Source of the DNA: an uncultured Gemmatimonadaceae bacterium
GTDB taxonomy: Bacteria > Gemmatimonadota > Gemmatimonadetes > Gemmatimonadales > Gemmatimonadaceae
DNA length: 64,000 nt
Assembly: GCA_963781585.1 (NCBI GenBank)
Contig: CAWAGQ010000004.1
Location: 800,001 to 864,000 of the forward strand
Reading direction: 5' to 3'
Shown here: positions 264 to 63,945 of the stretch, in pieces
Layout: each line of letters begins with the position of its first letter
Position numbering within the stretch: the first letter of the stretch is position 1
Translations under genes and position numbers: made by a program
The notes under the pieces: model-generated
Databases searched by the model: none
Told to the model about the DNA's origin: nothing
What the model saw: the letters and a program-made list of their open reading frames with translations, nothing else

Positions 264-1342
264 GCCGTGCCGGCGCCACCCCGCGCCACGAGCAGCTCCG
301 CGTTGAGCACGGACCCGCCCGCCGCGCCCCGGATCGTGTTGTGGCCTAACGCGACCAGCTTTACGTCCATCACCGGGTCGGGGCGGATGCGACCGACGGT
401 CACGGTCATTCCCCCTCCGGCGTTCACGTCACGACGCGTCTGCGGTCGATCCGGTTCGGAGGTCACCACCAGCGGGCGCTCCGGCGCGCTGGGCAGGCCC
501 ATCGCGTCCGCGTGCCCGCGCCACGTGCGCAGCGCCCGCTCCACGTCGCCCGCCGACGCCTTGCGGTCGAGGGCCACCGACAGACACACCAGGTGACCGT
601 GTTCGGTGGGAACACGGTTGGCGTGCGCGCTGACCGCGATCTTCCCGAGGTGCAGTTCCGCCCCCGAAATCGTGCCGAAGATCTTCCCGATCTCCCGCTG
701 AATCTTCGGTTCTTCGTCACCGATGAACGGAATCACGTTGGCCAGGATGTCGAGCGACGCCACGCCGGGATATCCCGCCCCCGAAATCGATTGCATCGTG
801 AAGACCACCGCCTGCCGCACGCCGAAGGCCTCCTCCAGCGGCGCCAGGGCCATCGCCGCCACCGTGGTCGCACAATTCGGATTGGTCACGATCCCGCCGG
901 TCCACCCGCGACCGCGCCGCTGCTCGTCGAGCAGCGTCCGGTGCGGCGCGTTGATCTCGGGTATGATCAACGGCACGTCGGCGTCCATCCGGTGATTCCT
1001 GGCGTTGCTCAGCACCAGCACGCCGGCACGCGCGAACGCCTGCTCCACTTCCCCGGCCACCGTGGCGTCGAGCGCCGAGAAGACGATGCGCGATCGAATG
1101 GCCGAGGGCTCGCACGGCACAACGACCTTTCCGGCGGTGTCCTCGGGCATCGTCCCTTCGAGCCAGTGGCACGCCTCGCGGTAGCGCTGCCCCACCGAAC
1201 GCTCGGACGCACCCAGCTCCGCAATCGTGAACCACGGGTGGCCGGTCAGCCGCCGGATGAATGTCTGTCCCACAGCCCCGGTCGCGCCAAGGATCGCGAC
1301 CGGAATCGGGCGCGGGGGCGCGCCGGCTGCAGCCGCGCTCAT
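260..1342 (-). CDS. asd: Aspartate-semialdehyde dehydrogenase
   Basis: GATGAVG NAD-binding motif, NPNC catalytic Cys, SGAG and HNTIRGAAG motifs. Confidence 0.96.
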   Translation of the reverse strand: MSAAAAGAPPRPIPVAILGATGAVGQTFIRRLTGHPWFTIAELGASERSVGQRYREACHWLEGTMPEDTAGKVVVPCEPSAIRSRIVFSALDATVAGEVEQAFARAGVLVLSNARNHRMDADVPLIIPEINAPHRTLLDEQRRGRGWTGGIVTNPNCATTVAAMALAPLEEAFGVRQAVVFTMQSISGAGYPGVASLDILANVIPFIGDEEPKIQREIGKIFGTISGAELHLGKIAVSAHANRVPTEHGHLVCLSVALDRKASAGDVERALRTWRGHADAMGLPSAPERPLVVTSEPDRPQTRRDVNAGGGMTVTVGRIRPDPVMDVKLVALGHNTIRGAAGGSVLNAELLVARGGAGTA

Positions 1343-2334
1343 GCGCTCAGCACCGCGCGCACCATTCTCTCGTACGCGTCCACCGCGGCGCGCAATTCAT
1401 CCACCGCCACGAATTCATCCGGCGTATGCGCGACGTGGATCGACCCGGGGCCGAACAGCAGCGGCGTTCCCCAGCGATCGAGCAGGGGGATGTCCGATGT
1501 GAACGCGACGGGCGCCGTCTCGAATCCTGGAATGGTGTGGAAGTACTGCAGCGGGATGTGCGACCCATAGGTGATTTCGGCGCGGCCCGCGACCCACGAT
1601 TCCACCATCCGCTTCACCACGTCCACGTCTCCCACCAGCCGGAACATCAACTCCACCTCGCACGATCCCGGAATGATGTTGGCTTCGGTGCCACCACGGA
1701 TGACCCCGATGTTCACCGTGCTCTGCCCCAGTCGCGGATCGGAGGGGAGTTCCAGGGTCTTGAGCGACGGTAGCAACTCGAGCATCGGCTCGATGGCCGA
1801 CTTGCCCAGTTGCGGATAGGCCGAGTGCGCCTCGACGCCCCGCGTGCGCAGCGTGACGCGGAGGGATCCCTTCGCGCCAACCGCCAGTTTGCTCTCGGTG
1901 GGTTCGCCGTTGATGAGAAAGCGACTCGTACACGGCAGGCGATTGGCCGCGCGGGCGCCGTCAGACGCCTTCTCCTCTCCGACCACGAAGAGCAGATCGA
2001 CGCGATTCTCACCCGAGTCGGCCAGGCGGTCTCCTGCCACCAGCATTGCCGCGGCGATTCCCTTGGCATCGCACGCGCCCCGACCATAGAGACGGTCACC
2101 AGCGAGTCGCGCCGGCACGTACGGCGGGACGGTGTCGAGGTGGGTGGACAGCGTCACGCCGCCACCCTCACGCGAGGCCCAGACGTTCCCCCGTCCTGGC
2201 GTGACTTCCTGCACCGTGACGTTCCAGCCTCTGCCGACCAGCCATCGGGATACGAAATCGACGATCCGGCTCTCCGACCCGGACGGCGACTCGATGGCAA
2301 GCAGCTCGGCAGCAAGCGCGACAACATCGACCAT
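1339..2334 (-). CDS. M20 family metallopeptidase/deacylase (ArgE/DapE-like)
   Basis: THLDTVP, GRGACDAKG, VGEE, GEPT and AHS motifs. Start re-assigned to MVDVVALAAELL (ATG 2334). Coupled to asd. Confidence 0.88.
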   Translation of the reverse strand: MVDVVALAAELLAIESPSGSESRIVDFVSRWLVGRGWNVTVQEVTPGRGNVWASREGGGVTLSTHLDTVPPYVPARLAGDRLYGRGACDAKGIAAAMLVAGDRLADSGENRVDLLFVVGEEKASDGARAANRLPCTSRFLINGEPTESKLAVGAKGSLRVTLRTRGVEAHSAYPQLGKSAIEPMLELLPSLKTLELPSDPRLGQSTVNIGVIRGGTEANIIPGSCEVELMFRLVGDVDVVKRMVESWVAGRAEITYGSHIPLQYFHTIPGFETAPVAFTSDIPLLDRWGTPLLFGPGSIHVAHTPDEFVAVDELRAAVDAYERMVRAVLSA

Positions 2335-2499
2335 GGCGTCAATTGTAGCGGCGCTCCCACAACGTTGACAGGTGAATGCGCGCGGCGTGCTGTCCGCGTG
2401 ACGGCTTTCGAGTAACTTCTCTGTCGGCTGAAGGGTCGCTCCCCCGTTCACGCCGCACCCGAGCTCCGCCGCAACCCTGACGATCTCCGTTTTCGTGCA

Positions 2500-4917: not shown

Positions 4918-6534
4918 ATGCGAAGCTCAGCCATCGCCTGGCGGTCTGTGTTCGCGGCGATGCTCGTCACCGCCGCGCCGGCCGTCGCGCAGCGAACCGC
5001 TGCCCCCGCCGCCGATCCGCGACTGGAGCGGCTGAAGGCCGAGGCGTTGACCAGGGTCGAAGGGCGCGCCACGCTGGTCCAGCAGATCGTCGATCAGATC
5101 TTCTCGTTCGGCGAGCTCGGGATGCAGGAGTTCGAGACGTCGAAGTACCTGATGGGGTTGCTGCGGCAGAACGGTTTCACGGTGGACAGCGGTTTCGCGG
5201 GGATCCCGACCGCGTGGGTGGCCACCTGGGGCTCCGGGAAGCCGGTCATCGCGTTAGGCTCGGACATCGACGACATCCCGCAGGCGAACCAGAAGCCGGG
5301 GGTGGCCTGGCATGACCCGATCATTTCGGGGGCACCGGGACACGGCGAGGGGCACAACTCGGGTCAGGCGGTGAACATCGCGGCCGCCCTCGTCGTGAAG
5401 GAGATCATGGAGCGGGACCACATCCCGGGCACGCTCAAGATCTGGCCCGGGGTGGCTGAGGAGCAGGTGGCGTCGAAGGCGTATTTCGTGCGCGCGGGCC
5501 TGTTCAAGGACGTGGATGTCTGTCTCTTCACCCACGTCGGCAACAACCTCGGCGTCTCCTGGGGGCAGTCGGGGTCGAACGCGCTGCTGTCGGTACTGTT
5601 CAAGTTCCGCGGGCAGACGGCGCACGCGGCGGGGGCGCCGTGGCGCGGCAAGTCGGCGCTCGACGCGGTGATGCTGATGGCGCAGGCGTGGGAGTTCCAC
5701 CGGGAGCACATGGAGATCCCGCAGCGATCGCACTACGTGATTCCCGACGGCGGTGATCAGCCTAACGTGGTGCCGGCCACGGCGTCCGTCTGGTTCTACT
5801 TCCGCGAGCGCGACTACGAGCACACGATGGCGATGTTCGAGGCCGCGAAGAACATGGCCAGGGGGGCCGAGCTGATGACCGGCGCCACGCTCGACAGCAC
5901 CATCATCCTCGGCTCGGCGTGGTCGGGGCACTTCAACAAGACCATCGCCGAGGTGACTTACCGGAACATCCAGCGGGTGGGGCTGCCCAGGTGGGACGAT
6001 GCCGACATCACGCTGGCCAGGGGGATCCAGCACGAGCTGGGGCAGCGCGAGGAGGGACTGGCTACGCACATCGACTCGATCGGCGGGCCGGTGGACATGG
6101 CGCGCTTCACCGGCGGCGGGTCGGACGACATCGGCGACGTGTCGTGGAACGTGCCGACCGTGACGCTGCGCTTTCCGTCGAACATCCCGGGGCTGCCGGG
6201 GCACAACTGGGCGAACGGGATCTCGATGGCGACGCCGCTGGCGCACAAGGGGGCGCTGGCGGGGGCGAAGGTACAGGCGCTGACGCTGCTCGACCTGTTG
6301 CTCACGCCCAGGGACATCGCCGACGCCTGGGACTACTTCAACACCGTGCAGACCAGGGAGCACAAGTACACGCCGTTCATCGGGCCTGACGACAAGCCGG
6401 CCATCTGGCTCAACGCGGACATCATGGCGAAGTACCGGCCCGAGATGCGGAAGTACTATTACGATCCCACGAAGTACAAGTCGTATCTGGAGCAGCTGGG
6501 GATCAAGTATCCGACGGTGAAGGTGATCCAGTAG
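4918..6534 (+). CDS. Secreted M20 amidohydrolase (AbgB-like)
   Basis: Signal peptide ending APAVA-Q; GHGEGHN, AEE, AHAAGAPW and GGGSDD motifs. Confidence 0.88.
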   Translation: MRSSAIAWRSVFAAMLVTAAPAVAQRTAAPAADPRLERLKAEALTRVEGRATLVQQIVDQIFSFGELGMQEFETSKYLMGLLRQNGFTVDSGFAGIPTAWVATWGSGKPVIALGSDIDDIPQANQKPGVAWHDPIISGAPGHGEGHNSGQAVNIAAALVVKEIMERDHIPGTLKIWPGVAEEQVASKAYFVRAGLFKDVDVCLFTHVGNNLGVSWGQSGSNALLSVLFKFRGQTAHAAGAPWRGKSALDAVMLMAQAWEFHREHMEIPQRSHYVIPDGGDQPNVVPATASVWFYFRERDYEHTMAMFEAAKNMARGAELMTGATLDSTIILGSAWSGHFNKTIAEVTYRNIQRVGLPRWDDADITLARGIQHELGQREEGLATHIDSIGGPVDMARFTGGGSDDIGDVSWNVPTVTLRFPSNIPGLPGHNWANGISMATPLAHKGALAGAKVQALTLLDLLLTPRDIADAWDYFNTVQTREHKYTPFIGPDDKPAIWLNADIMAKYRPEMRKYYYDPTKYKSYLEQLGIKYPTVKVIQ

Positions 6535-6646
6535 CCGGGGTGTCGCGACCGAATCCATTCGGTTCAGGAGAGGGGCTCGAACCGGGGCGAGGTGCGTGCA
6601 CCTTTCAGGCATCGATCTTCTGCCTTTGGCTCTGTCGGATTCTCGA

Positions 6647-6997
6647 CTATCCTCTGCAGGCGTTGCCGCGCGCGGACCAGCTTACGATGCGGCTGCTCTG
6701 AGCTGCGACCATGGTCACCTGGCACCAGTACGTAACAGAGCCGGCAGTGACCATGTTCCATACGGCGTTGTAGTTCGCTGTCACCACGGTGTTACCGACC
6801 CACAGCCACGTGTACATCCGCGAGCCGTTCGGCATTTCGAAAGACTGTCCCGGCGGTCCCCATGCCGTCATTAGCCGGTTAACGTCTTGATTCAGCCATG
6901 TATTCATCTTGGACCTGAAGCCGCCAGTTGTTGCGCACGCGAGAAGGGATGTCGCGATGGCAGCGAGACTGGTCAGGAAGCGGAGTGCTCTGGGCAT
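6647..6997 (-). CDS. Small lipoprotein of unknown function
   Basis: AGGAGGAG RBS before ATG 6997, lipobox LLAC, WGPP...PNGSRMYTW and two C-terminal Cys. Lies in a lower-GC stretch. Confidence 0.7.
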   Translation of the reverse strand: MPRALRFLTSLAAIATSLLACATTGGFRSKMNTWLNQDVNRLMTAWGPPGQSFEMPNGSRMYTWLWVGNTVVTANYNAVWNMVTAGSVTYWCQVTMVAAQSSRIVSWSARGNACRG

Positions 6998-7434
6998 CGC
7001 TCCTCCTACGGTCGCCGCTCTTACCTTAGGTGACGGGTGGACTTGATGTAATGCGTCTTTGGATTGCGAAAGCCACCTGGATGCCAAGTCCCGCCGAGAG
7101 CGAATTCGCATGTGTTGCTCCCCTTTGCGCAGAGCCGGTCGCTGCCTTGGCGCGCCCTTTCATCTTGACAGTGGCTCAGCGTTACCGCCGTCGACACGGA
7201 TCGGACGACGGACCTTTAGATCGCTTCAGAGGATTGTAGCGCGCATCCCTCGTGGGGCGCCGCTCGGTGATTTGTTTTTCCCTACTCGACTTCGAGGCTG
7301 GCGTCTGTGGAATGAGTCGGAGGTCCACTGGCCGCTGTCCGAGCCGAACGGGTACAGTTCGGGCACAAGTCAGATTTGCTCTGCGTGCTTGCATGACTTC
7401 CGTTGAAGGTCGCGAACCCTTGTGGCGCAACCGA

Positions 7435-7517
7435 TGCGGAGGCCGGGACTCGAACCCGGATGGCCTTGCGGCCAGGGGATTTTAAGTCCCCTGCGTCTAC
7501 CATTTCGCCACCCCCGC
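7435..7517 (-). tRNA. tRNA-Leu (TAA)
   Basis: GCGGGGGTGGCGAAATGGTAGACGC-AGGGGA CT TAA AA TCCCCT-long variable arm-GGTTCGAGTCC-GGCCTCCGCA. CCA is not encoded. Confidence 0.96.
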
Positions 7518-7607
7518 AAACACAAAACGGCGGACCGCAATCGATCGAAGCGAAGACACCACGTCGCATCGTCGATCCACCGTCCACCGTTTCCCGTCAC
7601 ACCGAAG

Positions 7608-7680
7608 AGCGGGAAACGGGACTCGAACCCGCGACCCCAACCTTGGCAAGGTTGTGCTCTACCAACTGAGCTATTCCCGC
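7608..7680 (-). tRNA. tRNA-Gly (GCC)
   Basis: GCGGGAATAGCTCAGTTGGTAGAGCACAACCTTGCCAAGGTTGGGGTCGCGGGTTCGAGTCCCGTTTCCCGCT. Confidence 0.97.
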
Positions 7681-7689
7681 GTGCGGCCT

Positions 7690-7719
7690 AGTATAGCGGC
7701 TCCCGCTCCGCGCCGACAA
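7690..7719 (-). promoter_or_regulatory. Sigma70-type promoter of the tRNA-Gly/tRNA-Leu pair
   Basis: TTGTCG-N18-TATACT ending 9 nt upstream of tRNA-Gly. Confidence 0.6.
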
Positions 7720-7812
7720 GCGGAAGGAAGCAGCTACCAGCGATCAGCGGTCAGCTCTCGGGTCGCTGGTCACCCCCCGCCGTTTCTTGTACCGCGCCCT
7801 TCCCACCTGGCC

Positions 7813-9021
7813 TCAGCCCGGCCCTTCATCCGACCGCCACTCCACCCCCGCCCCCGCCGCCGCACCCGTGATCCACCACCGCGCCTCGCGCGCGAACCGC
7901 GCCCGATACTCCTCCTCCAGCTCCCCGGCAGCCTCGCGCAGCCCCTCGCCCGTACCGACCGCGATCGCGCACCCGCCCCACCCCGCCCCGGTCAGACGCG
8001 CCCCTATCACCCCGCGCCGTTCGGCTGCCGCCTCCACGAACCAGTCGAGCTCCGGCGTCGAACACTCGTACAGATCGCGCAACGACCGGTGCGATTCGTA
8101 GAGCAACACCCCCGGCAGGTGCCCGGTTGCCAAGAGCGACACGACCGCCTGCTCCACTCGATGGTTCTCCTCGATGACGTGCTGTGCGCGCTGGAGCAAC
8201 GGTGACGGCAGCCCTGCCTCGTGCACCTGCTCCATGGTGGCGTTTGCCAGCCACCTGAGTTCCGGAAACGCTTTCCGCATCAGTTGCAGCGCGGCCTCGC
8301 ACTCCGCGCGGCGAGCCCCATACGCCGACTCCCGCAGGTCACGCGATACGCCGGTATCGAATACCAGCACGCTCTGCGCGAAGGGGAGGTGCACGGTACG
8401 TCCGGTATCGCACTCGAGGTGCAAGGCGTGCCCCGCGCGCGCCAGCGACACCGCGAACTGGTCCATCACGCCGCACGGCACGCCCACGAACTCGACCTCG
8501 GCGCGATGGGCCGCTCCGGCCAGTGCGGCCGCGTCACACGCCGCCGTTCGGTCGCCCCGCTGCACCAGCGGCGCACCGTGCGCTCCCGCTCCGGAACCGG
8601 CGCCTAACGACTCGGCTGCGAACGCGACCGCCACCTCCAGCGCGGCCGACGACGACAATCCGGCACCGGCCGGGACGTCGCTCTCCACGGCGATGTCCAC
8701 CTCGGGCACCGCCATCCCCACGTCTGCCAGCATCGCCAGCGGGCCCGCCACGTAATCAATCCAGGTTCCTGTTCTGGCCGACGCGCCCACGGAGAACCCC
8801 GGCGCGTCGGGCCACTGCGCCGAGACGGCGCGGGACTGCCGGCCGCCCGCCGGGCCCATCGCCACCCACGTCCGCGCTTCGATGGCGATGGGCAGGACGG
8901 CGCCGCCGTTGTAGTCGGTGTGCTCGCCGATCAGGTTCACCCGCCCCGGCGCCGACGCGATGACCGCGGGAGGGCGACCGAACGTCCGCGCGAACGTCGC
9001 GCGGACGCGTTCCACCGTCAC
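7813..9021 (-). CDS. galK: Galactokinase
   Basis: APGRVNLIGEHTDYNGG, PAGAGLSSSAA, CGVMDQ and GARLTGAGWGG motifs. GTG start overlaps the upstream stop. Confidence 0.93.
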   Translation of the reverse strand: MTVERVRATFARTFGRPPAVIASAPGRVNLIGEHTDYNGGAVLPIAIEARTWVAMGPAGGRQSRAVSAQWPDAPGFSVGASARTGTWIDYVAGPLAMLADVGMAVPEVDIAVESDVPAGAGLSSSAALEVAVAFAAESLGAGSGAGAHGAPLVQRGDRTAACDAAALAGAAHRAEVEFVGVPCGVMDQFAVSLARAGHALHLECDTGRTVHLPFAQSVLVFDTGVSRDLRESAYGARRAECEAALQLMRKAFPELRWLANATMEQVHEAGLPSPLLQRAQHVIEENHRVEQAVVSLLATGHLPGVLLYESHRSLRDLYECSTPELDWFVEAAAERRGVIGARLTGAGWGGCAIAVGTGEGLREAAGELEEEYRARFAREARWWITGAAAGAGVEWRSDEGPG

Positions 9022-10805
9022 GGGGTCACGCCTAACGCGTGGACCGCATACCAGACCGAGTAGGCCAGCAGTCCGGCCAGCGACGCGTCGGTGCCATTCC
9101 CGGCGGCCCGCCCGTCGGCGTCCACCTCCTCGGCCGCCATCCCCTGGTGGAGCGGCGCCCGCCGCAACCACTCCATCACCGTCCGCGCGTCCGGACCCAT
9201 CAGCCGCGCGCACTGCTGCACCAGATACCGCGGCGACAGGTCCAGCCCCCGTACGGTGCGCCGGTACGCCGAGTCGGAGCGGTCGACCATGTCGTACAGC
9301 GGGAGCCAGAGCACCGACACCAGCGGATCATCGTCGGCTACCGCCTCGCCCGCGAGATTGATGGCCGAGAGAAAGATCTCCTTGCCGTCGCGATCCTTGG
9401 AGAAGTGGCGGCGCAACGCGGCCCGCACCGCCTCGGGGTCCTGCACGTCGCGGGCGGTCTCCTCGTCCAGCGTCCGGCGAAAGACCTCGAGCGCCTGCGC
9501 CACCACGGCGTTGCCGTGCAGTGTGTACGGGAAGGCCGCGGGCCGCCCCGACGGCGTCACCTCCGTGGAGTACAGCGGAATCTGCTCGTTGCGACGCGCG
9601 GTGATGTCTTCCTTCGAGAGATAGAGCGTATCGGCAAGTACCGGCTCTTCGACGATCTGATCGTCTCCGGTCTCGCGGATGTAGCGATCGGTGGCCAGCG
9701 CGTAGGCCGCCGCCCCCTCGATGCAGAAGCCGGGCTCGAACAGCGCCCCGTCGAAATAGCGGACGCCGCTCCCCGGCGCGTAGCCGTGCAGTTCGCACGC
9801 CCGCAGCAACAGCTCGCGCGCCAGCGGCGGGTCTGCCAGCTGGACCGCGGGAATCGTCCAGTTCAGCGCCTCCCACTCGCGCACCGTCACCCCGCGACCG
9901 TGCCACGGCGCGCGCGTGCGCACCACGTAGAAGTGGGCGTCGTCCAGCGCGCGCGCCACGCTGAAGAAGTAGGCCAGCAGCAGATTGCGGTTGATCAGCC
10001 CGTCCAGCGAGTCCTGGCCGCTGCTCTGCTCGAGCGCACGCAGTGCCTCACGAGTGGCCGCGAGCAGGCTCCGCCATCCGCGACGCCGCATGACCGATAC
10101 GGTCGACTCGGCACCGTCACCCTCGGGGCCCACCGCAAGATAGAACGCCGTTTCCGCGCGGCCCCCCGCCCCCGCGCGCATCTGTCGTCGGATGGCGAAC
10201 CGCGGCGGCGCATCCTCGTCCACCGTGATGGTGGAGTCCCCGTCGCTGCCGATCGCGAGCGCCACCAGTCCGGGAAGGGCGCCACCCCGGAGGATCACCG
10301 CGTCCGATTCACCCCGCTGCACGATGTGGGCATCCCCGAACGGACGCGAGGTGCGAACGCGTAGCTGCCGATGGCCGAGCCGCCCCTCGAGGCCGATGGT
10401 CAGCTGGACCTCGCTCGCACCGCGGTTCTCGACCGAGATCGCGTAGACTGCGCCCGCCGTGTCCGCGTCGCGACCGTACGGGGCAAAAACGGTGGCGCGG
10501 ATCGTGAGCGCTCCCACGTTGCACACGAAGGCGGGTATCCATCCCACCACCCGCTCCCATGCCAGTTGCGCCCCGGCCAGAACGATCGGCGTGCCGTCCA
10601 CTTCGATGACCGGACGCGCGAGGGGCGCACCCTTCCCGCTCACGAACTCCGCGTCGCCGGCGAACTCCACCGCCGAACGCGAGCCGCGGTGCAGCACGCC
10701 CACGGCATGGATGGCGCCGTCAGCGGGATGAATGCACGGCAGCGCAATCCAGTGATTGCCGGTGATCTGCCACGGTACGGCCGGTATCGGCGAGGTGGTG
10801 TGCAT
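9018..10805 (-). CDS. GH125-like (six-hairpin glycosidase-like) protein with N-terminal extension
   Basis: C-terminal half resembles GH125 motifs: PSGRPAAFPYTLHGNAVV, DDDPLVSVLWLPLY..VDRSDSAYRRT, MAAEEVD. Coupled to galK. Confidence 0.6.
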   Translation of the reverse strand: MHTTSPIPAVPWQITGNHWIALPCIHPADGAIHAVGVLHRGSRSAVEFAGDAEFVSGKGAPLARPVIEVDGTPIVLAGAQLAWERVVGWIPAFVCNVGALTIRATVFAPYGRDADTAGAVYAISVENRGASEVQLTIGLEGRLGHRQLRVRTSRPFGDAHIVQRGESDAVILRGGALPGLVALAIGSDGDSTITVDEDAPPRFAIRRQMRAGAGGRAETAFYLAVGPEGDGAESTVSVMRRRGWRSLLAATREALRALEQSSGQDSLDGLINRNLLLAYFFSVARALDDAHFYVVRTRAPWHGRGVTVREWEALNWTIPAVQLADPPLARELLLRACELHGYAPGSGVRYFDGALFEPGFCIEGAAAYALATDRYIRETGDDQIVEEPVLADTLYLSKEDITARRNEQIPLYSTEVTPSGRPAAFPYTLHGNAVVAQALEVFRRTLDEETARDVQDPEAVRAALRRHFSKDRDGKEIFLSAINLAGEAVADDDPLVSVLWLPLYDMVDRSDSAYRRTVRGLDLSPRYLVQQCARLMGPDARTVMEWLRRAPLHQGMAAEEVDADGRAAGNGTDASLAGLLAYSVWYAVHALGVTP

Positions 10806-10903
10806 GCCGTTACTTTCCCAGACGCCCTGTCGGCCGCGGCCGCATGCTGCCGCCATCGCGCGGGCGACGTCGCTACCATCAGCTCGAATCTCCGCAACTT
10901 ACC

Positions 10904-12664: not shown

Positions 12665-12721
12665 GCATTCGTCAGGCTGGCGTTAGGCAGTCGTGAGGCG
12701 CTCGTCAGGCGCTCGTCAGGC
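12648..12721 (+). repeat. Seven-copy array of CGTYAGGC-like octamers with exact 11-bp period
   Basis: Units start at 12648, 12659, 12670, 12681, 12692, 12703 and 12714. Confidence 0.9.
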
Positions 12722-12800
12722 GGCGCATCCCGCTGGCCGCCGAGGCGGGGTACCCGCAATCCCGGGGGGCTCCCGCCCGGCGAGAACCGGGCGACCGGGC

Positions 12801-50361: not shown

Positions 50362-50518
50362 CGTTTTGAAGCTACAGCCTCCCGTGGGATTCGGTCGCGA
50401 TCCCCAGACCAGGGGCCCTCCTCCAGTGACCTGGCGCGGCCGCCGCACCTGAGACGGGTGTTCCGGCATCGCCGCCGCCACAAGGCTGTGAAGCCTCCGG
50501 GCCTCGGGCAGCACGACC

Positions 50519-53316: not shown

Positions 53317-53364
53317 TCGGGCGCGTACCGGCGCGCCTCATTGCGCGAAAAGGCACACGCCGGA

Positions 53365-53399
53365 GACCAGGGGTCACAGGCCACGGGCCGGAGGCCATG
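53365..53399. repeat. Heptamer tandem array (5 units)
   Basis: gaccagg ggtcaca ggccacg ggccgga ggccatg. Confidence 0.65.
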
Positions 53400-53404
53400 G
53401 CCCC

Positions 53405-54397: not shown

Positions 54398-54512
54398 TCG
54401 CCGGTGCGCACTGCGTGGCCCGCTCACGGAAGATAACCGGGCGGGCACACCAGACGCGCATCGGTGGCGCCCGTTGACCAGTGGCGCGGATCAGGCCTAC
54501 CTTCCCGGCGCC

Positions 54513-55541
54513 ATGGCCCGTGCTGCTCCCTCTTCCCGCGCCCTCATCGGTCGCGCCCGACTGGCCCGGCTGCTCGACGGCATGCGGGGTAAGCGCATCG
54601 TCGTCGTCGGCGATGCGATGCTCGATGTGTATCTGCATGGCGACGTGGAGCGCATTTCGCCGGAGGCTCCGGTGCCGGTGGTGCGGGTTCGCGAGCGTCG
54701 TTATGCGCTGGGGGGGGCTGCCAACGTCGTCCAGAACGTGGCGGCAACCGGTGCCCGGGTCACGCTGGTGGCGACCGTCGGCGACGATGACGCCGGGGGC
54801 CGGCTGCGGGGGATGCTCGCGCGGATCGGAGCCGACGGGGACGCGCTCATCGCCAGCGCGCGGGAAACCACCACCAAGACGCGTCTGGTGGCGCGATCGC
54901 AGCAGGTGGTGCGGGTGGACGAGGAGGACGACGGGGATCTGCCCGCGCACGACGTGCAGCGCCTGCTCGATGCCCTGCTGCCGCTGGTGGCGCGCGCCGA
55001 CGCCGTGGTGCTGGAGGACTACAACAAGGGCGTGCTGGTCCCGGCGGTCATCACGGCAACGATCGACGCGGCGCGGGCGCGGGGCGTGCCGGTGGTCGTC
55101 GATCCCAAGTTCCGCAATTTCTTCTCGTATCAGGGCGCGACGATCTTCAAACCGAACCGGCGCGAGCTCGAGTCCGCGCTCGGCGCCACCGTGCATCTGG
55201 AGGACGATGGCGCCCTGCCGGTGATGGTCCAGCGCCTGGGGGTCGACCATCTGCTGCTCACGTTAGGCGACCGCGGGATGACGCTGGTGTCGGCGGCGGG
55301 CGCGGTGACGCGGATCCCGACGACGGCTCGCGAGGTGTTCGACGTGGTGGGGGCCGGGGACACGGTGATCGCGTATCTGGCGACCGCGCTGGCGGCGGGT
55401 GCGACGGCGGCCGAGGCGGCGGTGATCTCGAACTTCGCAGCGGGGGTGGAGGTGGGGAAACTGGGAGCGGCAACGGTGAGCACGGCAGAGATTCTGGAGG
55501 CGGCGGCGCACCACAGCGGGGGCGGGCGCAAGCGCGGGTGA
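54513..55541 (+). CDS. hldA: D-glycero-beta-D-manno-heptose-7-phosphate kinase (RfaE/HldE domain I)
   Basis: GDAMLD, RISPEAPVPV, DYNKG and DVVGAGDT motifs. Confidence 0.9.
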   Translation: MARAAPSSRALIGRARLARLLDGMRGKRIVVVGDAMLDVYLHGDVERISPEAPVPVVRVRERRYALGGAANVVQNVAATGARVTLVATVGDDDAGGRLRGMLARIGADGDALIASARETTTKTRLVARSQQVVRVDEEDDGDLPAHDVQRLLDALLPLVARADAVVLEDYNKGVLVPAVITATIDAARARGVPVVVDPKFRNFFSYQGATIFKPNRRELESALGATVHLEDDGALPVMVQRLGVDHLLLTLGDRGMTLVSAAGAVTRIPTTAREVFDVVGAGDTVIAYLATALAAGATAAEAAVISNFAAGVEVGKLGAATVSTAEILEAAAHHSGGGRKRG

Positions 55542-55692
55542 GGGACGGGGGACCCCCCGGCCGTGGGTCTCGTGGGTACGCGTCAGGAGCGTGCGATCGG
55601 GTGGGAGCGTCGGTTCTCGATGCGGGTGATTCGCCCGACGCGTGCGCGGTCCGGTTGGCGCGTTTTCCAGCGTGCGCTAACTTCGATCCAGC

Positions 55693-55766
55693 GGGCCCTT
55701 AGCTCAGCTGGTTAGAGCAGCGGACTCATAATCCGACGGTCGCAGGTTCGATCCCTGCAGGGCCCA
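55693..55766 (+). tRNA. tRNA with CAT anticodon, most likely tRNA-Ile2 (lysidine)
   Basis: GGGCCCTTAGCTCAGCTGGTTAGAGCAGCGGACTCATAATCCG...AGGGCCCA. Acceptor and body resemble Ile2; initiator features (C1 mismatch, GGG/CCC anticodon stem) are absent. Confidence 0.9.
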
Positions 55767-55978
55767 TGGGGCACCAGCGCATAGCTCTGAGCTCACAGCT
55801 CGAGGCTCGTGGAGCCCTCGGGACGATGCCAAGCGTGGAGGGCGCGCGTGGCCGGTGTCCGTTGCCCCATTTTCTGACCCGCGACCTGCTCTGCGCCTGA
55901 CCGCGCGAGTGGCTCTGTCTCCTCACGCAGCAAAGGACGAGGAGCCGCCGCAAATACTTGGCGCGTCTGACGGGCGCC

Positions 55979-56116
55979 CTATCGGAACAGCGCCAACGCT
56001 TTCACCGCCACCTGCGCCACGCCCCACAACGCCGGCAGCCCGACCACCAGCCACGACAACGCCACCTTGAGCCGCTCGGACCCGGCGGCATCCTTCGCTG
56101 CGTCAGGCGCGCTCAT
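55979..56116 (-). CDS. Small membrane protein (MFS transporter small-subunit type)
   Basis: MSAPD...LSWLVVGLPALWGVAQVAVKALALFR; ATGA-coupled to the MFS gene. Confidence 0.75.
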   Translation of the reverse strand: MSAPDAAKDAAGSERLKVALSWLVVGLPALWGVAQVAVKALALFR

Positions 56117-57513
56117 GCGGTCCCTCCGTCGGGCAGCGCCGCCAGCTCCTCGGTCGCGCGACCGCGCTGGCCCGCGTAGTGGTATCGCGGATCGACCGGC
56201 CCCACCAGCCAGTTCGCCACGAATCCCGCCACCAGCAGCACCGCCATCAGGTACATCACGATCGAGTATGCGTTCGACTTCGCCACGCCGTGCGTCATCT
56301 GATATTCGCTGATGTAGTTCACCAGCACCGGACCGGCCACGCCGGCGAACGACCACGCGGTCAGCAGACGCCCATGAATCGCGCCCACGTGCATCACGCC
56401 GAAGAGATCGCGCAGATACGCGGGAATGGTCGCGAATCCACCCCCGTACATGCTCATGATCACGCAGTAGAACAGGACGAACAGCACCACACTGCCGATC
56501 CGCCCGGTGGTCGGCACCAGCGCGTACAGCGCGGCGCCGAGCGCAAAGTACACCATGTACGTGCGCCGTCGACCGATGTGATCCGACAGCGACGACCACA
56601 GGAAGCGACCGGCCATGTTCGCCAGGCTGAGCAACCCCACGAATCCTGCCGCCGCCGAGGCGCCAATGACGCCGGTGAACGTATCCTGGATCATCGGCGA
56701 CGCCTGGCCCAGCACGCCGATTCCCGCCGTCACGTTGAGCGCCAGGACGGCCCAGAGCAGCCAGAACTGGCGCGTCCCCAGCGCCCGATCGACGTGCACG
56801 TCCGGACCAGCCGGGACGCTGCGCGACGTCGCCGGACTCCACCCCGCCGGCCGCCATCCTTCCGCTGGCAGCCGCACGGTGAACACGCCGAACATCATGA
56901 ACACGAAATACAGGAGCCCCATCACCACGAACGCCGGCGCGACGCCGGTGGACGTCGGCGAGCGGAAATGCTCCATCAGCCCGACGGCCAGCGGCGACCC
57001 GATCATCGCCCCGCCACCGAACCCCATGATCGCCATTCCGGTCGCCATCCCCGGCCGGTCGGGGAACCACCTGATGAGCGTGGACACCGGCGAGATGTAC
57101 CCGAGTCCAAGCCCGATCCCCCCCAGGACCCCGTAGCCGAGGTACAGCAGCCACACCTGATGCCACACCACGCCTAACGCGGCGACCAGGAATCCGCCAC
57201 CGAAGCAGGCGGCCGAGGCGAACATCGCGCGCCGCGGTCCCGCCTCCTCCAGCCATCTCCCGAACGCGAACGCCGACAGGCCGAGAAAGACGATCGCGAT
57301 GCTGAACACCCACCCGATCGTGGTCCGCTTCCAGTCCCCCGGCGCCGACTCGGTGACGCCCCGCACCATCGTCAGCGGCAGGTTGAAGACGCTGAATGCG
57401 TACACCTGGCCGATCGACAGATGGATCGCGAGTGCTGCCGGCGGCACGCGCCAGCGGCTGAATCCGGGGCCGGCGATACAGCGGTCGCGATCGAGGAAGC
57501 GGAACGTGGACAT
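56113..57513 (-). CDS. OFA family MFS transporter (oxalate/formate/lactate type)
   Basis: About 12 TM segments; WFPDRPGMATGMAIMGFGGG and YGGGFATIPAY motifs. Confidence 0.92.
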   Translation of the reverse strand: MSTFRFLDRDRCIAGPGFSRWRVPPAALAIHLSIGQVYAFSVFNLPLTMVRGVTESAPGDWKRTTIGWVFSIAIVFLGLSAFAFGRWLEEAGPRRAMFASAACFGGGFLVAALGVVWHQVWLLYLGYGVLGGIGLGLGYISPVSTLIRWFPDRPGMATGMAIMGFGGGAMIGSPLAVGLMEHFRSPTSTGVAPAFVVMGLLYFVFMMFGVFTVRLPAEGWRPAGWSPATSRSVPAGPDVHVDRALGTRQFWLLWAVLALNVTAGIGVLGQASPMIQDTFTGVIGASAAAGFVGLLSLANMAGRFLWSSLSDHIGRRRTYMVYFALGAALYALVPTTGRIGSVVLFVLFYCVIMSMYGGGFATIPAYLRDLFGVMHVGAIHGRLLTAWSFAGVAGPVLVNYISEYQMTHGVAKSNAYSIVMYLMAVLLVAGFVANWLVGPVDPRYHYAGQRGRATEELAALPDGGTA

Positions 57514-57683
57514 CTACGCGGCGGAGGAGATGGTCGCGCGCCACGCAGCACCGCGCGCCAATTGGGGTCGAGTGCCAAATCATTGTCCGCGGAACCGGTC
57601 GCCGGAAGAGGAGGCGCACTACCCTCCCCTGAATGGCTCGATTAACCTTCCTCGCCCGACGCCCACGCGGCGCGGGAGCGTAC

Positions 57684-57757
57684 GGTCGCGTAGCTCAGCT
57701 GGTTAGAGCGCTGGTCTCACATACCAGAGGTCCGGGGTTCGAGTCCCTGCGCGACCA
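57684..57757 (+). tRNA. tRNA-Val (CAC)
   Basis: GGTCGCGTAGCTCAGCTGGTTAGAGCGCTGGTCTCACATACCAGAGGTCCGGGGTTCGAGTCCCTGCGCGACCA. Confidence 0.96.
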
Positions 57758-57767
57758 TCTTCGAGGG

Positions 57768-58784
57768 TCAGGGACGGCCCGCCAACCCGGCCTGGGCTTC
57801 GGCCTCCCGGCGCGCCAGATCCAGATCCGCCTCGATCATCATCCGCACGAGATCGCGGAAGCTCGTCTTCGGCGTCCACTTCAGCTGGCGACGAGCCTTC
57901 CCCGCGTCGCCCTGCAGCACATCGACCTCCGCCGGCCGGTAGTACCGCGGATCGATGTCGACATACCGCTTCCAGTCGAGGTCGAGCAACCGCGCGCTCT
58001 CGTCGAGGAAGTCCCGCACCGAATGCGTGACACCGGTCGCGATCACGAAGTCGCCGGGCGACTCCTCCTGCAGCATGAGCCACATCGCGTCGACGTAATC
58101 GCCGGCAAAGCCCCAGTCGCGCCGCGCATCCAGGTTGCCGAGGAACAACTTCGACTGCAGCCCGAGTTTGATCCGCGTCAGGCCCTGCGTGATCTTCCGC
58201 GTCACGAAGTTCTCCCCGCGCCGCGGACTCTCGTGGTTGAACAGGATCCCGCACGACGCGTGCAGTGCGTAGCTCTCGCGGTAGTTCACCACCGCGTGGT
58301 GGGCGAAGACCTTGGCGCACGCGTACGGCGACCGGGGATGAAACGGCGTGCGCTCCGATTGCGGCGTCTCCACCACCCTGCCGAACATCTCGCTCGACGA
58401 GGCCTGATAGAACCGCGGCGTGAGACCGAGGTTGCGGATGGCTTCGAGCAGTCGCAGCGTCCCGACCCCGGTCACCTCCACCGTATACTCGGGGATGTCG
58501 AAGCTGATGCGCACGTGACTCTGCGCGCCCAGATTGTATACCTCGTCCGGCTCCACCTCGGCCAGCACCCGCTGCAGCGACGACGCATCGTTGAGGTCAC
58601 CATAGTGCAGGCGGAGTCCGGTACCCGGGACGTTTTCGTCCAGATAGACGTGCTCGATGCGCTGGGTCGAAAACGAGCTCGAGCGACGCACGATGCCGTG
58701 CACGTCGTATCCCTTCCGCAGCAGCAACTCGGCGAGATACGAACCGTCCTGTCCAGTGATGCCGGTGATGAGAGCCTTGCGCAC
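57768..58784 (-). CDS. gmd: GDP-mannose 4,6-dehydratase
   Basis: [26 protein letters not shown] and FNHESPRRG motifs. Confidence 0.96.
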
Positions 58785-62082: not shown

Positions 62083-62610
62083 TCAGCCGGCCTCGAGCCC
62101 CAGCCGCTCGACGATCTCCGCCAGTGCGGGTTCCAGAGCCGGAGCCGGTGGAAACTCGTGGCGCGCGAGCCGCCAGCTGCGCAGCGCCAGCGTCCGAAAC
62201 GGCTCGAGCCCCAGGTCGTGCAGGAAATAGAACCAGCGGTCGCTGCGCCCATACACGAATACCTCGAGATGCGGGCTCAGCGTGATCTGATCGTCGTCGT
62301 CATGGAACGCGCACTCCAGTCCCGCATTCGCGACCAGCAGGCTGCGCAGGCGAAGCGCCGCATCGCGCGCCGCAGCGAGGGGCAGGTTTCCCCGACTCCA
62401 GCGCCGGTCCGAACGGACATCCTCGAGCGAGATGCACACGGTGTCGCTCAGACGCTCCGACAGGAGCAGAAAGAGTTCCACCGCCCGGTCGGCGTTGGCC
62501 ACGATCCGTGCCTCGAACAACCCACGATGCTCCGTGACCACGAAGCCTGCGTGCGGCAGGTGGAACCGGCGCCAGACCTCCGCGACCCGCTCGTGCCCCC
62601 GGATGAACAT
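62083..62610 (-). CDS. Hypothetical protein
   Basis: Fills the gap between cca and rarA with tight spacing; no motif recognised. Confidence 0.7.
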   Translation of the reverse strand: MFIRGHERVAEVWRRFHLPHAGFVVTEHRGLFEARIVANADRAVELFLLLSERLSDTVCISLEDVRSDRRWSRGNLPLAAARDAALRLRSLLVANAGLECAFHDDDDQITLSPHLEVFVYGRSDRWFYFLHDLGLEPFRTLALRSWRLARHEFPPAPALEPALAEIVERLGLEAG

Positions 62611-62613
62611 TGC

Positions 62614-63945
62614 CTAACGATCCTCGTCCCCGGGCGCCCCGCCCGCGATCCGGCGGGCCAGGTCCAGCAGCCGGTCGCGGCTGTTGAGTTCCGGGTCCTC
62701 AAGGACGCGATCGAGCAGCCGCCGCAACAGTGTCCCGAGCTCCGGTCCCGCCGCGAAGCCCGCCGCGTGGAGGTCGTCGCCGTCGACAGCCAGGTCGCCC
62801 AGCGACACGGGGTCGCGATAGGCTACCCGAAGCGCCTGTCGGTACACTGTGATCGCGGTCCCGCCGCCGTGCATCGCGCGTTCGCTCCCGCCCGCGCACC
62901 AGCGTGCGTACGTGACGCGCAACAGGTCACGCATCACCGTGCGGCCCGCGCGGGCCGCCCACCGGCGCAGCCATGACTCCGGCACGTGTGCGGCCGCGTC
63001 GAACATTCCTTCCACCTGGTCGCGCAACTGCGCCCACGCCCCAGCCAGGTGGGCGATCCATCGGAGCTCGCGGTTGGAGGCGCGCAATTCGCGCAATGTC
63101 CGACGAACTCCCTCGTCGTCGAGCCCCAGAAAGAGAGTCGCCAGGCGGTTCAGGCGGCGCGCCGAGGCCAGCTCGGCGCGGCTGGTGAGGTCGGGGAGAC
63201 CGATGTGGTCGGCGGCGCGAAACGCATCGTCGGGCTGGACCACCAGCGCTGGGAGGAGCGCGGCCAAGGCGCCCGACTGGCGCCAGAGTGCCATTGCCCG
63301 GCTTGGCCGGCGCACCTGCTCCATGGTCTTCTCCAATTCCTGCCGCACCCGTTCCCGCGAGAGGCGGGTGAGGAAGGGCGCCGACTCGACGATCGCCTGC
63401 CAGGTTTCGGCGGCGATCTCGAAATCGAACCGGGCCGCGAAACGCAGCGCCCGCAGTGCGCGGAGCCGGTCTTCCTTCATGCGCTCCGCGGGCCTGCCAA
63501 CGGCGCGCACGATGCCCCGCCGGAGATCGGCGCGCCCGTCGAACGGGTCGTGCAGTACCTCGCGTTCCGGAGAGTAGGCGATGGCGTTGATCGTGAAGTC
63601 GCGCCGCGCCAGGTCCTCGTCCAGAGACACACCGTACTCGACTTCGGCATGGCGACCATCGGTCCGTACGTCGCGCCGGAACGTGGTCACTTCGTGCAGA
63701 ACGCCGTCGCGATCCAGCACACCGACCGTGCCGTACTCGATTCCCACCGGAAACGTGCGACGGAAGAGCGACCGGACCACCTCGGGTGTGGCCTGGGTGG
63801 CCAGGTCCCAGTCCAGGTGAGTGCGCCCGAGCAGCGCATCCCGCACCGCCCCACCCACGGCCCACGTCTCGTGGCCAGCGGCCTCCAGGGTGCGCGCGAT
63901 CTCACGCACCGTATTCGGTGGATGCAGGCGCCTGGTCTCGTCCAC
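62614..63945 (-). CDS. cca: CCA-adding tRNA nucleotidyltransferase (class II)
   Basis: VGGAVRD..LG...DWD, TFRRDVRTDGRHAEV, EDLARRDFTINA and EDRLRALR motifs. Confidence 0.92.
   Translation of the reverse strand: MDETRRLHPPNTVREIARTLEAAGHETWAVGGAVRDALLGRTHLDWDLATQATPEVVRSLFRRTFPVGIEYGTVGVLDRDGVLHEVTTFRRDVRTDGRHAEVEYGVSLDEDLARRDFTINAIAYSPEREVLHDPFDGRADLRRGIVRAVGRPAERMKEDRLRALRALRFAARFDFEIAAETWQAIVESAPFLTRLSRERVRQELEKTMEQVRRPSRAMALWRQSGALAALLPALVVQPDDAFRAADHIGLPDLTSRAELASARRLNRLATLFLGLDDEGVRRTLRELRASNRELRWIAHLAGAWAQLRDQVEGMFDAAAHVPESWLRRWAARAGRTVMRDLLRVTYARWCAGGSERAMHGGGTAITVYRQALRVAYRDPVSLGDLAVDGDDLHAAGFAAGPELGTLLRRLLDRVLEDPELNSRDRLLDLARRIAGGAPGDEDR

Follow-up and report, generated by a model that had tools for sequence, protein, structure and literature searches.

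GCCTRACG, an octamer written into the housekeeping genes of a soil-type Gemmatimonadaceae bacterium, as a possible self tag of the DNA-uptake-sequence type

According to the available part of a recent preprint (bioRxiv 10.1101/2025.10.24.684340), the uptake sequences known so far measure 9-10 nt, number hundreds to thousands per genome and have been described in two families only. The same text reports that intragenic copies keep out of frames that would contain a stop and strongly favor particular reading frames, and that about half of all copies lie in terminators, often as inverted pairs. The HIP1 octamer of cyanobacteria (GCGATCGC), as covered in the available text of PMC5861425, is intragenic, admits single-base variants, gives way to other octamers in certain lineages and has no known function. 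In the literature we found no description of the word GCCTRACG, and no paper linking Gemmatimonadota with uptake sequences.

Here we analyze a window, the whole 64-kb stretch of DNA under study, from a soil-type Gemmatimonadaceae bacterium whose housekeeping genes carry GCCTAACG about thirty times above chance. GCCTAACG/CGTTAGGC, the A-form of the word, is present in 20 exact copies, with GCCTAACG 13 times on the + strand and 7 times on the - strand. An earlier note on this DNA had listed these 20 copies, and every coordinate matched; a 7/8 copy it had placed at 46174 exists but occupies 46173-46180 (CCCTAACG). Order-0 composition predicts 2.35 copies in the window, in keeping with the note's rough figure of about 2, first- and third-order Markov models predict 0.88 and 0.77, and dinucleotide shuffles (n = 100) gave 0.66 ± 0.77 copies, with a maximum of 3. 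Inside the 59 gene calls of the window, 18 coding copies compare with 0.62 ± 0.74 (maximum 5) in 500 within-gene synonymous-codon shuffles, an enrichment of ~29-fold, and the word ranks first by observed/expected among all octamers in the window. The over-representation first claimed thus survives a null that holds amino-acid sequence and codon usage constant: it is extreme, and independent of both. A-form density is ~1 per 3.2 kb, and the coding share of 18/20 simply reflects the window's 91% coding fraction. The coding copies occupy only two reading frames, as had been proposed.

Frame nCG-TTA-GGC, 12 copies:
344..351, + strand: asd (gene on the - strand), coding strand GCG-TTA-GGC (Ala-Leu-Gly)
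5252..5259, - strand: M20 amidohydrolase gene (+ strand), GCG-TTA-GGC
8602..8609, + strand: galK, TCG-TTA-GGC; relatives are gapped in that stretch
9030..9037, + strand: unknown conserved 595-aa protein, near the C-terminus, GCG-TTA-GGC
13500..13507, + strand: recN, ACG-TTA-GGC; Gly in 0/25 relatives
14672..14679, + strand: nadK, ACG-TTA-GGC; common to L044
24381..24388, + strand: pheT, second copy, GCG-TTA-GGC; common to L001
26084..26091, + strand: pheS, conserved ALGP, GCG-TTA-GGC
46784..46800, no single strand: inverted pair in prmA, the only one of the word in the window; G-form (G at position 5) at 46784-46791 (- strand) and A-form at 46793-46800 (+ strand), 1 base between; coding strand TCG-TTA-GGC-AGC-CTG-ACG
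50005..50012, + strand: hemW, TCG-TTA-GGC
55261..55268, - strand: heptose-7-phosphate kinase gene (rfaE domain I; hldE-type), ACG-TTA-GGC
57172..57179, + strand: MFS transporter gene, GCG-TTA-GGC
Frame nnG-CCT-AAC-G, 6 copies:
5760..5767, + strand: M20 amidohydrolase gene, second copy, CAG-CCT-AAC-GTG (Pro-Asn)
16725..16732, - strand: dxs, invariant IAPNV, GCG-CCT-AAC-GTG; of 29 aligned relatives, L001 alone shares it
21543..21550, - strand: rny, CTG-CCT-AAC-GAC
23405..23412, - strand: pheT, variable position, ATG-CCT-AAC-GCG
31812..31819, + strand: rex, GTG-CCT-AAC-GAC
52142..52149, - strand: obg, P-loop GQPNAGK, CAG-CCT-AAC-GCG
Other copies:
62612..62619, + strand: cca stop codon (TAG), as the note had it, CGT-TAG-GC on the - strand
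12648..12724, + strand: tandem array of 7 units, each CGTNAGGC plus 3 bases, 11-bp period

TTA is almost restricted to the word: 12 of the 16 TTA codons in the window's gene calls lie inside it, preceded by nCG and followed by GGC. Taken alone, nCG-TTA-GGC was observed 12 times against 0.15 expected and nnG-CCT-AAC-G 6 times against 0.38, counts that 0/400 shuffles reached in either case. Both orientations are separately enriched, and the signal therefore lies in DNA, not in mRNA or peptide. Its confinement of TTA might suggest instead that the rare pair TTA-GGC slows translation in a programmed way or serves regulation, with decoding by the neighboring tRNA-Leu(UAA) and tRNA-Gly(GCC), and the genes for tRNA-Leu(taa) and tRNA-Gly(gcc) do adjoin at 7433-7680. 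The reverse complement's enrichment in its own frame excludes such a translation-level reading, however, and one copy forms a stop codon while another is intergenic. The tRNA pair is kept in 13 Gemmatimonadota loci, all without the word, so its presence here is a coincidence of synteny; we give this idea almost no credence.

Position 5 of the word is degenerate, taking A in strong preference to G, and GCCTRACG describes it better than a fixed octamer does; its initial description as a non-palindromic octamer was right about the word but too strict, given this A/G degeneracy. Fifteen further copies of the G-form (GCCTGACG) are dispersed through the window.

6384..58183, no single strand: dispersed G-form copies starting at 6384, 11564, 11703, 18201, 20285, 20511, 22990, 32268, 37022, 38292, 39212, 43613, 53244, 56101 and 58176

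Several of these use rare codons (GTC-AGG four times, TCA-GGC twice, CCT-GAC three times), and with both forms counted the 64-kb window holds 40 copies, ~1 per 1.6 kb. One-mismatch neighbors, the G-form excluded, are neither enriched nor depleted (23 observed against 24.4 expected); in Haemophilus, the one-mismatch halo is larger than that around GCCTRACG here.

Three to four other Gemmatimonadaceae genomes are enriched for the word too, again in these two frames (7 copies in 12.4 kb of L001, 5 in 9.1 kb of L003 and 4 in 5.9 kb of L044). Enrichment was not found in 26 other Gemmatimonadota loci or in 50 outgroup loci; the 27 loci classed as other Gemmatimonadota, L015 included, hold 5 copies in 401 kb, and the outgroup loci 8 in 846 kb. 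L008, a sister lineage and the closest dxs relative (79% identity), has just 2 copies in 21.9 kb. Where the proteins of both genomes allow the word, carrier relatives fill 7/22 and the window 6/22 (about 30%), while relatives without the word fill 1 of 169 (0.6%). Between window and carriers, 3 sites are shared and 7 are not, an overlap that does not exceed what independent filling would give (odds ratio 3, p = 0.33, small sample), and in 10 comparisons of window and carrier the partner's residues are incompatible with the word; the NadK TLGGDGT site carries it in L001, L044 and L015 and lacks it in the window. Individual sites thus turn over between lineages, and some, such as that at the recN glycine, required an amino-acid change. 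The trait itself is lineage-specific and labile, which would follow from dependence on a single specificity determinant. No conservation was found in the flanks of the copies, so they do not belong to a longer mobile repeat.

Modification systems are similarly labile between close lineages. GCCTRACG could be recognized by a methyltransferase, or by a modification-dependent nuclease or repair enzyme, with biased mismatch correction ratcheting near-matches into copies that are themselves functionless. The sites of single-chain type IIL and BREX-type adenine methyltransferases, asymmetric, 7-8 bp long and with one purine-degenerate position, do resemble it. Reaching nCG-TTA-GGC from the usual leucine codon CTG or CTC, however, needs two changes toward A/T, and neither intermediate is in excess (GCCCAACG, 4 against 3.4 expected; GCCTAGCG, 0 against 0.26). 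A single-step ratchet should also deplete its substrates, yet the one-mismatch neighbors stand at 23 against 24.4, and the biases of very-short-patch-type repair are far weaker than 29-fold. The window holds no methyltransferase or Vsr-like gene, which, for so small a part of the genome, says little. We consider a modification or repair by-product improbable, although PMC5861425 (available text) cites a methyl-directed ratchet as a proposed source of HIP1.

The copy at 12681-12688, previously noted as intergenic, does lie outside a gene but is not solitary: it is the one A-form unit of the 7-unit array, whose other units are 4 G-forms, 1 C-form and 1 CGCTAGGC. The array sits between a convergent unknown gene (10904-12664) and recN, and its CGCTAGGC unit is the source of the upstream gene's TAG stop. 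It was seen in the window alone among 81 sequences, and these genomes contain many other short tandem arrays, built of unrelated units, so it may be a slippage product. An 11-bp period places the copies on one helix face, as cooperative protein binding favors, and the array would fit cooperative binding by a candidate chromosomal protein at least as well as it would an uptake role. GCCTRACG might thus be an architectural word like HIP1, a site for an abundant chromosomal protein (nucleoid-associated, condensin-loading or segregation) in which selection keeps density along the chromosome and not each individual site. Sites that turn over while density is held at ~30% occupancy per carrier genome agree with this, as do the intergenic heptamer arrays also present in these genomes, which mirror the combination of HIP1 and heptamer repeats in cyanobacteria. 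It is harder to reconcile with the sister lineage L008, which manages without the word, odd for an essential architectural system, and with Pfam and NCBIfam scans of the window, which show no candidate binding protein. The ~29-fold enrichment falls inside HIP1's 15- to 300-fold range, but HIP1 and its reported variants are palindromic and GCCTRACG is not (PMC5861425, available text). On balance, we regard an architectural role as a serious but unlikely alternative.

On the G-rich, presumably leading, strand of the one replichore sampled, the A-form shows a mild excess (24:13) that is compatible with no skew (p = 0.10) and that a 75% skew would also allow (P = 0.11), while skews from 85% upward can be rejected (P = 0.002); the G-form leans the opposite way (11:18), for 35:31 overall. 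Both orientations are used, with no KOPS-like polarity, and the strong replichore polarity that the earlier note had named as a sign of Chi or KOPS is absent from this sample, though a single replichore makes for a weak test. A Chi-like recombination hotspot, recognized by an enzyme of the RecBCD or AddAB type and abundant because it marks self DNA for protection in double-strand-break repair, would account for a mild leading-strand excess. This excess tracks the supply of sites, however (59 x-Leu-Gly against 11 Pro-Asn, in genes nearly all co-directional), and per available site it is the rarer orientation that carries the word more often (6/11 against 12/59 synonymous sites realized). Chi enrichment is few-fold and drawn from common codons; 29-fold on the rarest codon is far beyond it, and an order of magnitude above Chi and KOPS alike. 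GCCTRACG does share with Chi the form of a non-palindromic octamer (PMC5861425, available text), and we judge a Chi-like role very unlikely.

GCCTRACG most resembles a self tag by which DNA is recognized, undescribed in this phylum, and a tag of the DNA-uptake-sequence type is our leading, if tentative, explanation. A candidate sequence-specific protein would read the word on double-stranded DNA, and competent cells would bind and import word-carrying DNA more readily, the reader being a putative member of the transformation apparatus. Recombination of the imported DNA would then spread and restore copies across the core genome, a molecular drive that would retain the word at roughly a third of the positions the encoded protein tolerates and would be strong enough to fix the rarest leucine codon and, at times, an amino-acid change. 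The dprA gene in the window is, as the earlier note allowed, too widespread to be informative. Several observations count against uptake. The A-form leaves two further allowed frames unused (nGC-CTA-ACG, 0/26; nnC-GTT-AGG-C, 0/41), a pattern not readily expected from a drive acting on DNA alone. Across 14.5 kb of consecutive core genes (~31.9-46.3 kb), 0/15 possible sites are filled against 18/55 elsewhere (Fisher p = 0.008, region picked post hoc). The scant one-mismatch halo also counts against it, as do the 18/20 coding copies and the single inverted pair, in prmA, when set against the terminator habit. The shortlist first offered, of uptake, methylation or repair, and nucleoid-protein binding, is still the right one.

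Among known systems, Chi and KOPS or other architecture-imparting octamers are likewise non-palindromic and scattered through genes but are strand-biased, in contrast to the 35:31 seen here (PMC5861425, available text). HIP1 likewise is an enriched octamer found inside and between genes, with variants and lineage-specific replacement or loss; its sites are conserved between genomes beyond expectation, according to the same text, whereas the sharing of GCCTRACG sites fits independent filling. The DUS of Neisseriaceae and USS of Pasteurellaceae ("DUES") differ in sequence, in length (9-10 against 8 bp with one degenerate position) and in phylum. GCCTRACG has almost no one-mismatch halo, shows no preference for inverted pairs or for terminators, where the available part of the preprint places about half of DUES, and forms one tandem array, its 7 units and 11-bp phasing not being a known uptake-sequence feature. 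DUES have ComP or the predicted ComN as receptor; a corresponding receptor for GCCTRACG is hypothetical, as is the competence of its carriers. Like GCCTRACG, DUES are short, non-palindromic and used in both orientations, at ~1 copy per 1.6-3.2 kb. Further traits in common, on the DUES side as given in the available preprint text, are a place within core genes, avoidance of stop-containing frames with a strong frame bias, presence in some related species and absence from others, and a sheer rarity elsewhere that sets own DNA apart from foreign.

The octamer GCCTAACG, the A-form of the word GCCTRACG, occurs 20 times in the 64-kb window when both strands are searched, 13 times on the + strand and seven times on the − strand, and these are exactly the copies that the earlier note had listed by eye. 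The window has a G+C content of 68.6%, and the expected number of copies is 2.35 under an order-0 model, 0.88 under a first-order Markov model and 0.77 under a third-order one; dinucleotide-preserving shuffles (n = 100) gave a mean of 0.66 and a maximum of 3. By observed/expected ratio the A-form ranks first among all octamers of the window. A copy matching at seven of eight positions lies at 46173-46180.

A model of codon usage, trained on the window itself, called 59 genes (54 on the − strand) that cover 91% of it; they were named from NCBIfam and Pfam. Eighteen of the 20 A-form copies are coding. Synonymous-codon shuffling within each gene (n = 500) leaves only 0.62 ± 0.74 coding copies (maximum 5), a fold enrichment of ~29 under this codon-preserving null; neither protein sequence nor codon usage therefore accounts for the enrichment. 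The copies are placed as follows.

Placement of the A-form in the window
nCG-TTA-GGC (x-Leu-Gly frame), 12 copies: asd, M20 amidohydrolase, galK, a 595-aa protein without assignment, recN, nadK, pheT, pheS, prmA, hemW, hldE-type kinase, MFS transporter
nnG-CCT-AAC-G (Pro-Asn frame), 6 copies: amidohydrolase, dxs, rny, pheT, rex, the obg P-loop
cca, one copy, forming its TAG stop codon
Outside any gene, one copy, at 12681, in a tandem array
12648-12724, the tandem array: seven units of CGTNAGGC plus three bases, period 11, including the copy at 12681

TTA is the rarest leucine codon of the window (16 of 2027), and 12 of these 16 codons lie inside the word. The gene calls agree with the earlier note's frame assignments (12 TTA-GGC, six CCT-AAC, one cca stop, one non-genic), and the two comparisons that it had proposed, with a codon-shuffled null and with TTA usage outside the word, both come out in favor of enrichment. 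Each frame is enriched separately: nCG-TTA-GGC is observed 12 times against 0.15 expected and nnG-CCT-AAC-G six times against 0.38, and none of 400 shuffles reaches either count. Because both frames are enriched and are mutually reverse-complementary, the signal lies in double-stranded DNA, not in message or peptide. Among all positions where synonymous codons could spell the A-form, the Pro-Asn frame is filled at 6 of 11 and the x-Leu-Gly frame at 12 of 59; nGC-CTA-ACG (0 of 26) and nnC-GTT-AGG-C (0 of 41) are never used.

Two adjoining tRNA genes, tRNA-Leu(taa) at 7433-7518 and tRNA-Gly(gcc) at 7607-7680, decode the TTA-GGC pair and suggested that the word might be a translational signal; an Rfam scan of the window returned four tRNAs only. 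Two results defeat this reading: the reverse frame is enriched too, and the tRNA pair is kept in 13 Gemmatimonadota loci, all of them without the word. We consider a translational signal extremely improbable and set the adjacency aside as a clue; it is a coincidence of synteny.

Several features of the gene calls deserve mention in their own right. Stop codons in the 58 called genes examined are TGA (41), TAG (15) and TAA (2). GC directly follows the TAG stop in six of 15 cases, including cca, hinT and the gene that ends inside the array; for hinT this is a copy matching the word at seven of eight positions (45168), and of the 15 TAG stops only that of cca has the word in full. MutS2 is read as two overlapping open reading frames on the − strand, 41887-42582 and 42569-44284, of whose products one, of 571 aa, corresponds to positions 3-533 of the MutS2 model and the other, of 231 aa, to positions 561-790; the gene is frameshifted or else naturally split. 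Neither Pfam nor NCBIfam matches any of three long open reading frames, 2500-4836, 9018-10805 and 10904-12664 (778, 595 and 586 aa). The 595-aa and 586-aa frames flank the motif array and have homologues in most Gemmatimonadota loci; the 778-aa frame scores weakly as coding and is perhaps no true gene.

The word tolerates one substitution. Among the 24 one-mismatch neighbors of the A-form, only GCCTGACG, the G-form with G at position 5, is enriched, with 15 coding copies against 4.3 expected (maximum in shuffles, 11); the 21 neighbors with the mismatch elsewhere than at position 5 total 23 copies against 24.4 expected. The G-form also uses rare codons, appearing as GTC-AGG-C four times (0.19 expected; 0 of 400 shuffles reach 4) and as TCA-GGC twice (0.19 expected; 3 of 400 shuffles reach 2). 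At equal codon cost the A-form is clearly preferred, CCT-AAC being filled at 6 of 11 positions versus 2 of 30 for CCT-GAC. There are two frames in which A-form and G-form are synonymous, and there the G-form alone appears. We rejected a longer or gapped motif, since conservation is lacking in the flanks, 25 bases either way, of 36 A-form and 27 G-form copies; the sole flank feature is a deficit of G at the two positions adjoining the word. With flanks unconserved, no larger mobile repeat is built around the word.

We then asked how the word is distributed among 80 loci retrieved with the window's Dxs protein from contigs representing one genome per species, a set that excludes the source genome. 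Gemmatimonadota account for all of the best Dxs matches, which have 61-79% identity. Three of these loci, L001, L003 and L044, carry seven A-form copies in 12.4 kb, five in 9.1 kb and four in 5.9 kb, with an expectation of 0.3-0.4 apiece. A group of 27 other Gemmatimonadota loci holds five copies in 401 kb, and the 50 outgroup loci hold eight in 846 kb. One of the 27, L015 (5 kb), has a single TTA-GGC copy at a site common to L001 and L044 and is probably a carrier as well; neither the 26 other Gemmatimonadota loci nor the 50 outgroup loci show A-form enrichment. The same two frames predominate in the relatives, with one GTT-AGG exception, in L001. Enrichment of the G-form is confined to the sequences enriched for the A-form: it is observed 27 times against 6.3 expected in four carrier sequences, 22 against 24.1 in other Gemmatimonadota and 79 against 77.1 in outgroups.

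In a quick dxs tree the window clusters with L003 and L008 (SH-aLRT 94), the latter its closest dxs relative and nearly free of the word, and L001 clusters with L044 (SH-aLRT 91). The carrier label requires three changes on this tree, in which L015 is not labeled a carrier; the word may have had a single origin, followed by losses. We also looked for dialects of the word in other Gemmatimonadota and rejected them: the top octamers there are mostly local tandem repeats. A de-clustered de novo octamer scan gives p = 1e-4 to 1e-7 in other Gemmatimonadota loci, within the range of the outgroup loci (1e-3 to 5e-8), so no dialects are detected; a 22-kb slice of the window gives p = 2.7e-14 in the de novo scan.

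Individual codons can be followed at orthologous sites. The invariant Dxs motif IAPNV has the word-forming CCT in the window and L001 only, the 28 other sequences using CCG, CCC or CCA, or CCT paired with AAT. At NadK TLGGDGT, L001, L044 and L015 have ACG-TTA-GGC, the window has ACC-CTG-GGC and 25 others have common codons. The glycine of the recN copy occurs in 0 of 25 relatives, and the asd, galK and one of the pheT copies stand at variable residues; some copies thus required a change of amino acid. Occupancy of possible sites is ~30% in carriers versus 0.6% in non-carriers. Against relatives without the word, the window alone is filled at 57 sites, the relative alone at one and both at none. 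Against carriers, 22 aligned sites are possible in both, of which three are filled in both, seven in one only and 12 in neither (odds ratio 3, p = 0.33; relatives at 50-80% protein identity). With relatives this distant, site sharing between carriers is indistinguishable from independent filling, and individual sites appear to have been filled largely independently.

Strand orientation bears on whether the word could be a Chi-like or KOPS-like site. Orientation was counted in the window and four relatives, which represent one syntenic region on a single replichore; across the window GC skew is negative throughout and nearly all genes lie on the − strand. The A-form falls on the G-rich strand 24:13 (two-sided p = 0.10 versus 50%), and the probability of 24 or fewer of 37 is 0.11 at 75% skew, 0.002 at 85% and 3.5e-5 at 90%; with one replichore sampled, neither 50% nor 75% is rejected for the A-form. 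Chi has a marked leading-strand excess, about three quarters. The G-form divides 11:18, and the two forms together place 35 of 66 copies on the G-rich strand, which is incompatible with 75% skew. The A-form excess parallels the supply of sites (59 x-Leu-Gly versus 11 Pro-Asn), and the rarer orientation, Pro-Asn, is the one filled more often per site. Chi-like polarity is unlikely, and we give a Chi-like site little credence. KOPS and architecture-imparting sequences have a strand skew of at least 85%, which the word fails to reach (P = 0.002); KOPS-like polarity is excluded.

The tandem array of the window has one unit, CGCTAGGC, that forms the stop codon of the upstream gene, and a comparable array is found in no other sequence of the set searched. 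It may be a slippage product that captured the word, or a cooperative binding site. Its position, the recN-downstream junction, also holds arrays in L044 and L008. Gemmatimonadota loci commonly contain short tandem arrays between genes, mostly heptamers in 4-10 copies with a different unit in every genome, which resemble the heptamer repeats of cyanobacteria. Certain gene junctions hold them repeatedly (nadK-recN, recN-downstream and galK-downstream). The window itself also has a 14-mer array (×6), with arrays at 31108-31191 and 45014-45048, and relatives have them in L001 (8793-8823), L009 (12882-12956 and 19334-19406), L019 (2456-2564), L022 (120-157), L023 (5369-5431 and 11794-11855) and L044 (3309-3334). 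Directly downstream of recN, L008 has about seven copies of a 55-bp repeat (14587-15000), unrelated in sequence to the window array.

Two further local arrangements were seen. Inside prmA, a G-form and an A-form copy stand one base apart as an inverted pair. Between ~31.9 and 46.3 kb (14.5 kb), 0 of 15 possible A-form sites are filled versus 18 of 55 elsewhere (p = 0.008 for a region chosen post hoc). This segment, an unbroken series of core genes that runs from ksgA to rsmE and contains ksgA, a SpoIIE-type phosphatase gene, pta, coaD, recJ, dnaG, mutS2 and rsmE, does have G-form copies and could be a recent import from a lineage without the word.

These observations require a force that acts on DNA, is specific to eight base pairs, works in both orientations, is confined to a few related genomes and is powerful enough to bring the rarest codon, and now and then an amino-acid change, to fixation. 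To our knowledge, only two phenomena reach such strength inside genes, uptake sequences and HIP1. NCBIfam searches of the 59 window proteins and Pfam searches of 12 unassigned ones revealed no methyltransferase, nuclease, pilin or obvious DNA-binding candidate, and the 64-kb window has no pilin or competence genes beyond dprA. A modification or repair ratchet seems to us improbable, if less so than a Chi-like site.

In the literature searched, we found no description of the word or of an uptake-like motif in Gemmatimonadota. Text searches for the octamer in either orientation returned only primers, oligonucleotides or unrelated sequences among the matches listed; searches on Gemmatimonadota and uptake sequences found none, those combining TTA with over-represented octamers, or the phylum with competence or methylomes, nothing specific, and the survey literature on DUS and USS nothing beyond the two known families. 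Those parts of a 2025 preprint that we drew on place uptake words in two bacterial families only, both Proteobacteria (bioRxiv 10.1101/2025.10.24.684340), and an excerpt of another paper refers to ComEC homologues among soil bacteria at large (PMC7305173).

If the word is an uptake word, the abundant and rarely cultured soil bacteria that carry it would be naturally transformable and would police DNA import, sequence-specific uptake would have evolved repeatedly, and Gemmatimonadota genetics would gain a handle, since word-bearing DNA should transform better. If it is instead a non-palindromic counterpart of HIP1, simple oligonucleotides would suffice to test its binding by a protein. The word is in any case a practical marker that separates carriers from relatives without it, and it could flag recently imported DNA.

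HIP1 is a palindromic octamer, whereas GCCTAACG differs from its own reverse complement, and HIP1 sites are conserved between genomes beyond codon conservation and spaced with periods of 10-90 kb. In the portion of the HIP1 literature consulted, HIP1 is the one other comparably hyper-abundant intragenic octamer, unexplained for more than 20 years, and is over-represented 15- to 300-fold inside and between genes (PMC5861425). The ~29-fold enrichment of the word falls within that range, and an architectural binding site like HIP1 is a lesser possibility that we take seriously, ahead of any ratchet.

DUS and USS are short non-palindromic words with hundreds to thousands of copies per genome; the window has 20 in 64 kb against 0.6-0.9 expected, which by extrapolation would amount to thousands per genome. 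A DUS or USS word, or its dialect, is common to related species, as GCCTRACG is to L001, L003, L044 and probably L015. Uptake sequences run in both orientations free of replichore polarity; on the single replichore sampled here, the G-rich strand has the A-form at 24:13 and the G-form at 11:18. Competent cells favor DNA with their own DUS or USS in both binding and import. DUS is read by a dedicated receptor, the minor pilin ComP, and ComN is predicted to serve in Pasteurellaceae. DUS and USS often form inverted pairs at terminators, whereas here 18 of 20 copies are coding, the one inverted pair lies in prmA and one copy lies in a direct-repeat array; terminator pairs are strong in Neisseriaceae and not required for Haemophilus-type USS. 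Four features sit badly with uptake sequences: the near-restriction of the copies to coding sequence, the lack of a one-mismatch halo, the frames left empty and the phased array. On asymmetry, density, frame behavior and patchy phylogenetic distribution, uptake sequences are nonetheless the best fit, and a word of self-recognition for uptake is our leading, still tentative, reading; what probability remains goes to something not yet named. The word cannot be assigned to DUS/USS, HIP1, Chi or KOPS. GCCTRACG might be a third, independently evolved uptake word, found in a subclade of Gemmatimonadaceae, and would then be the first case of sequence-specific DNA self-recognition outside Proteobacteria.
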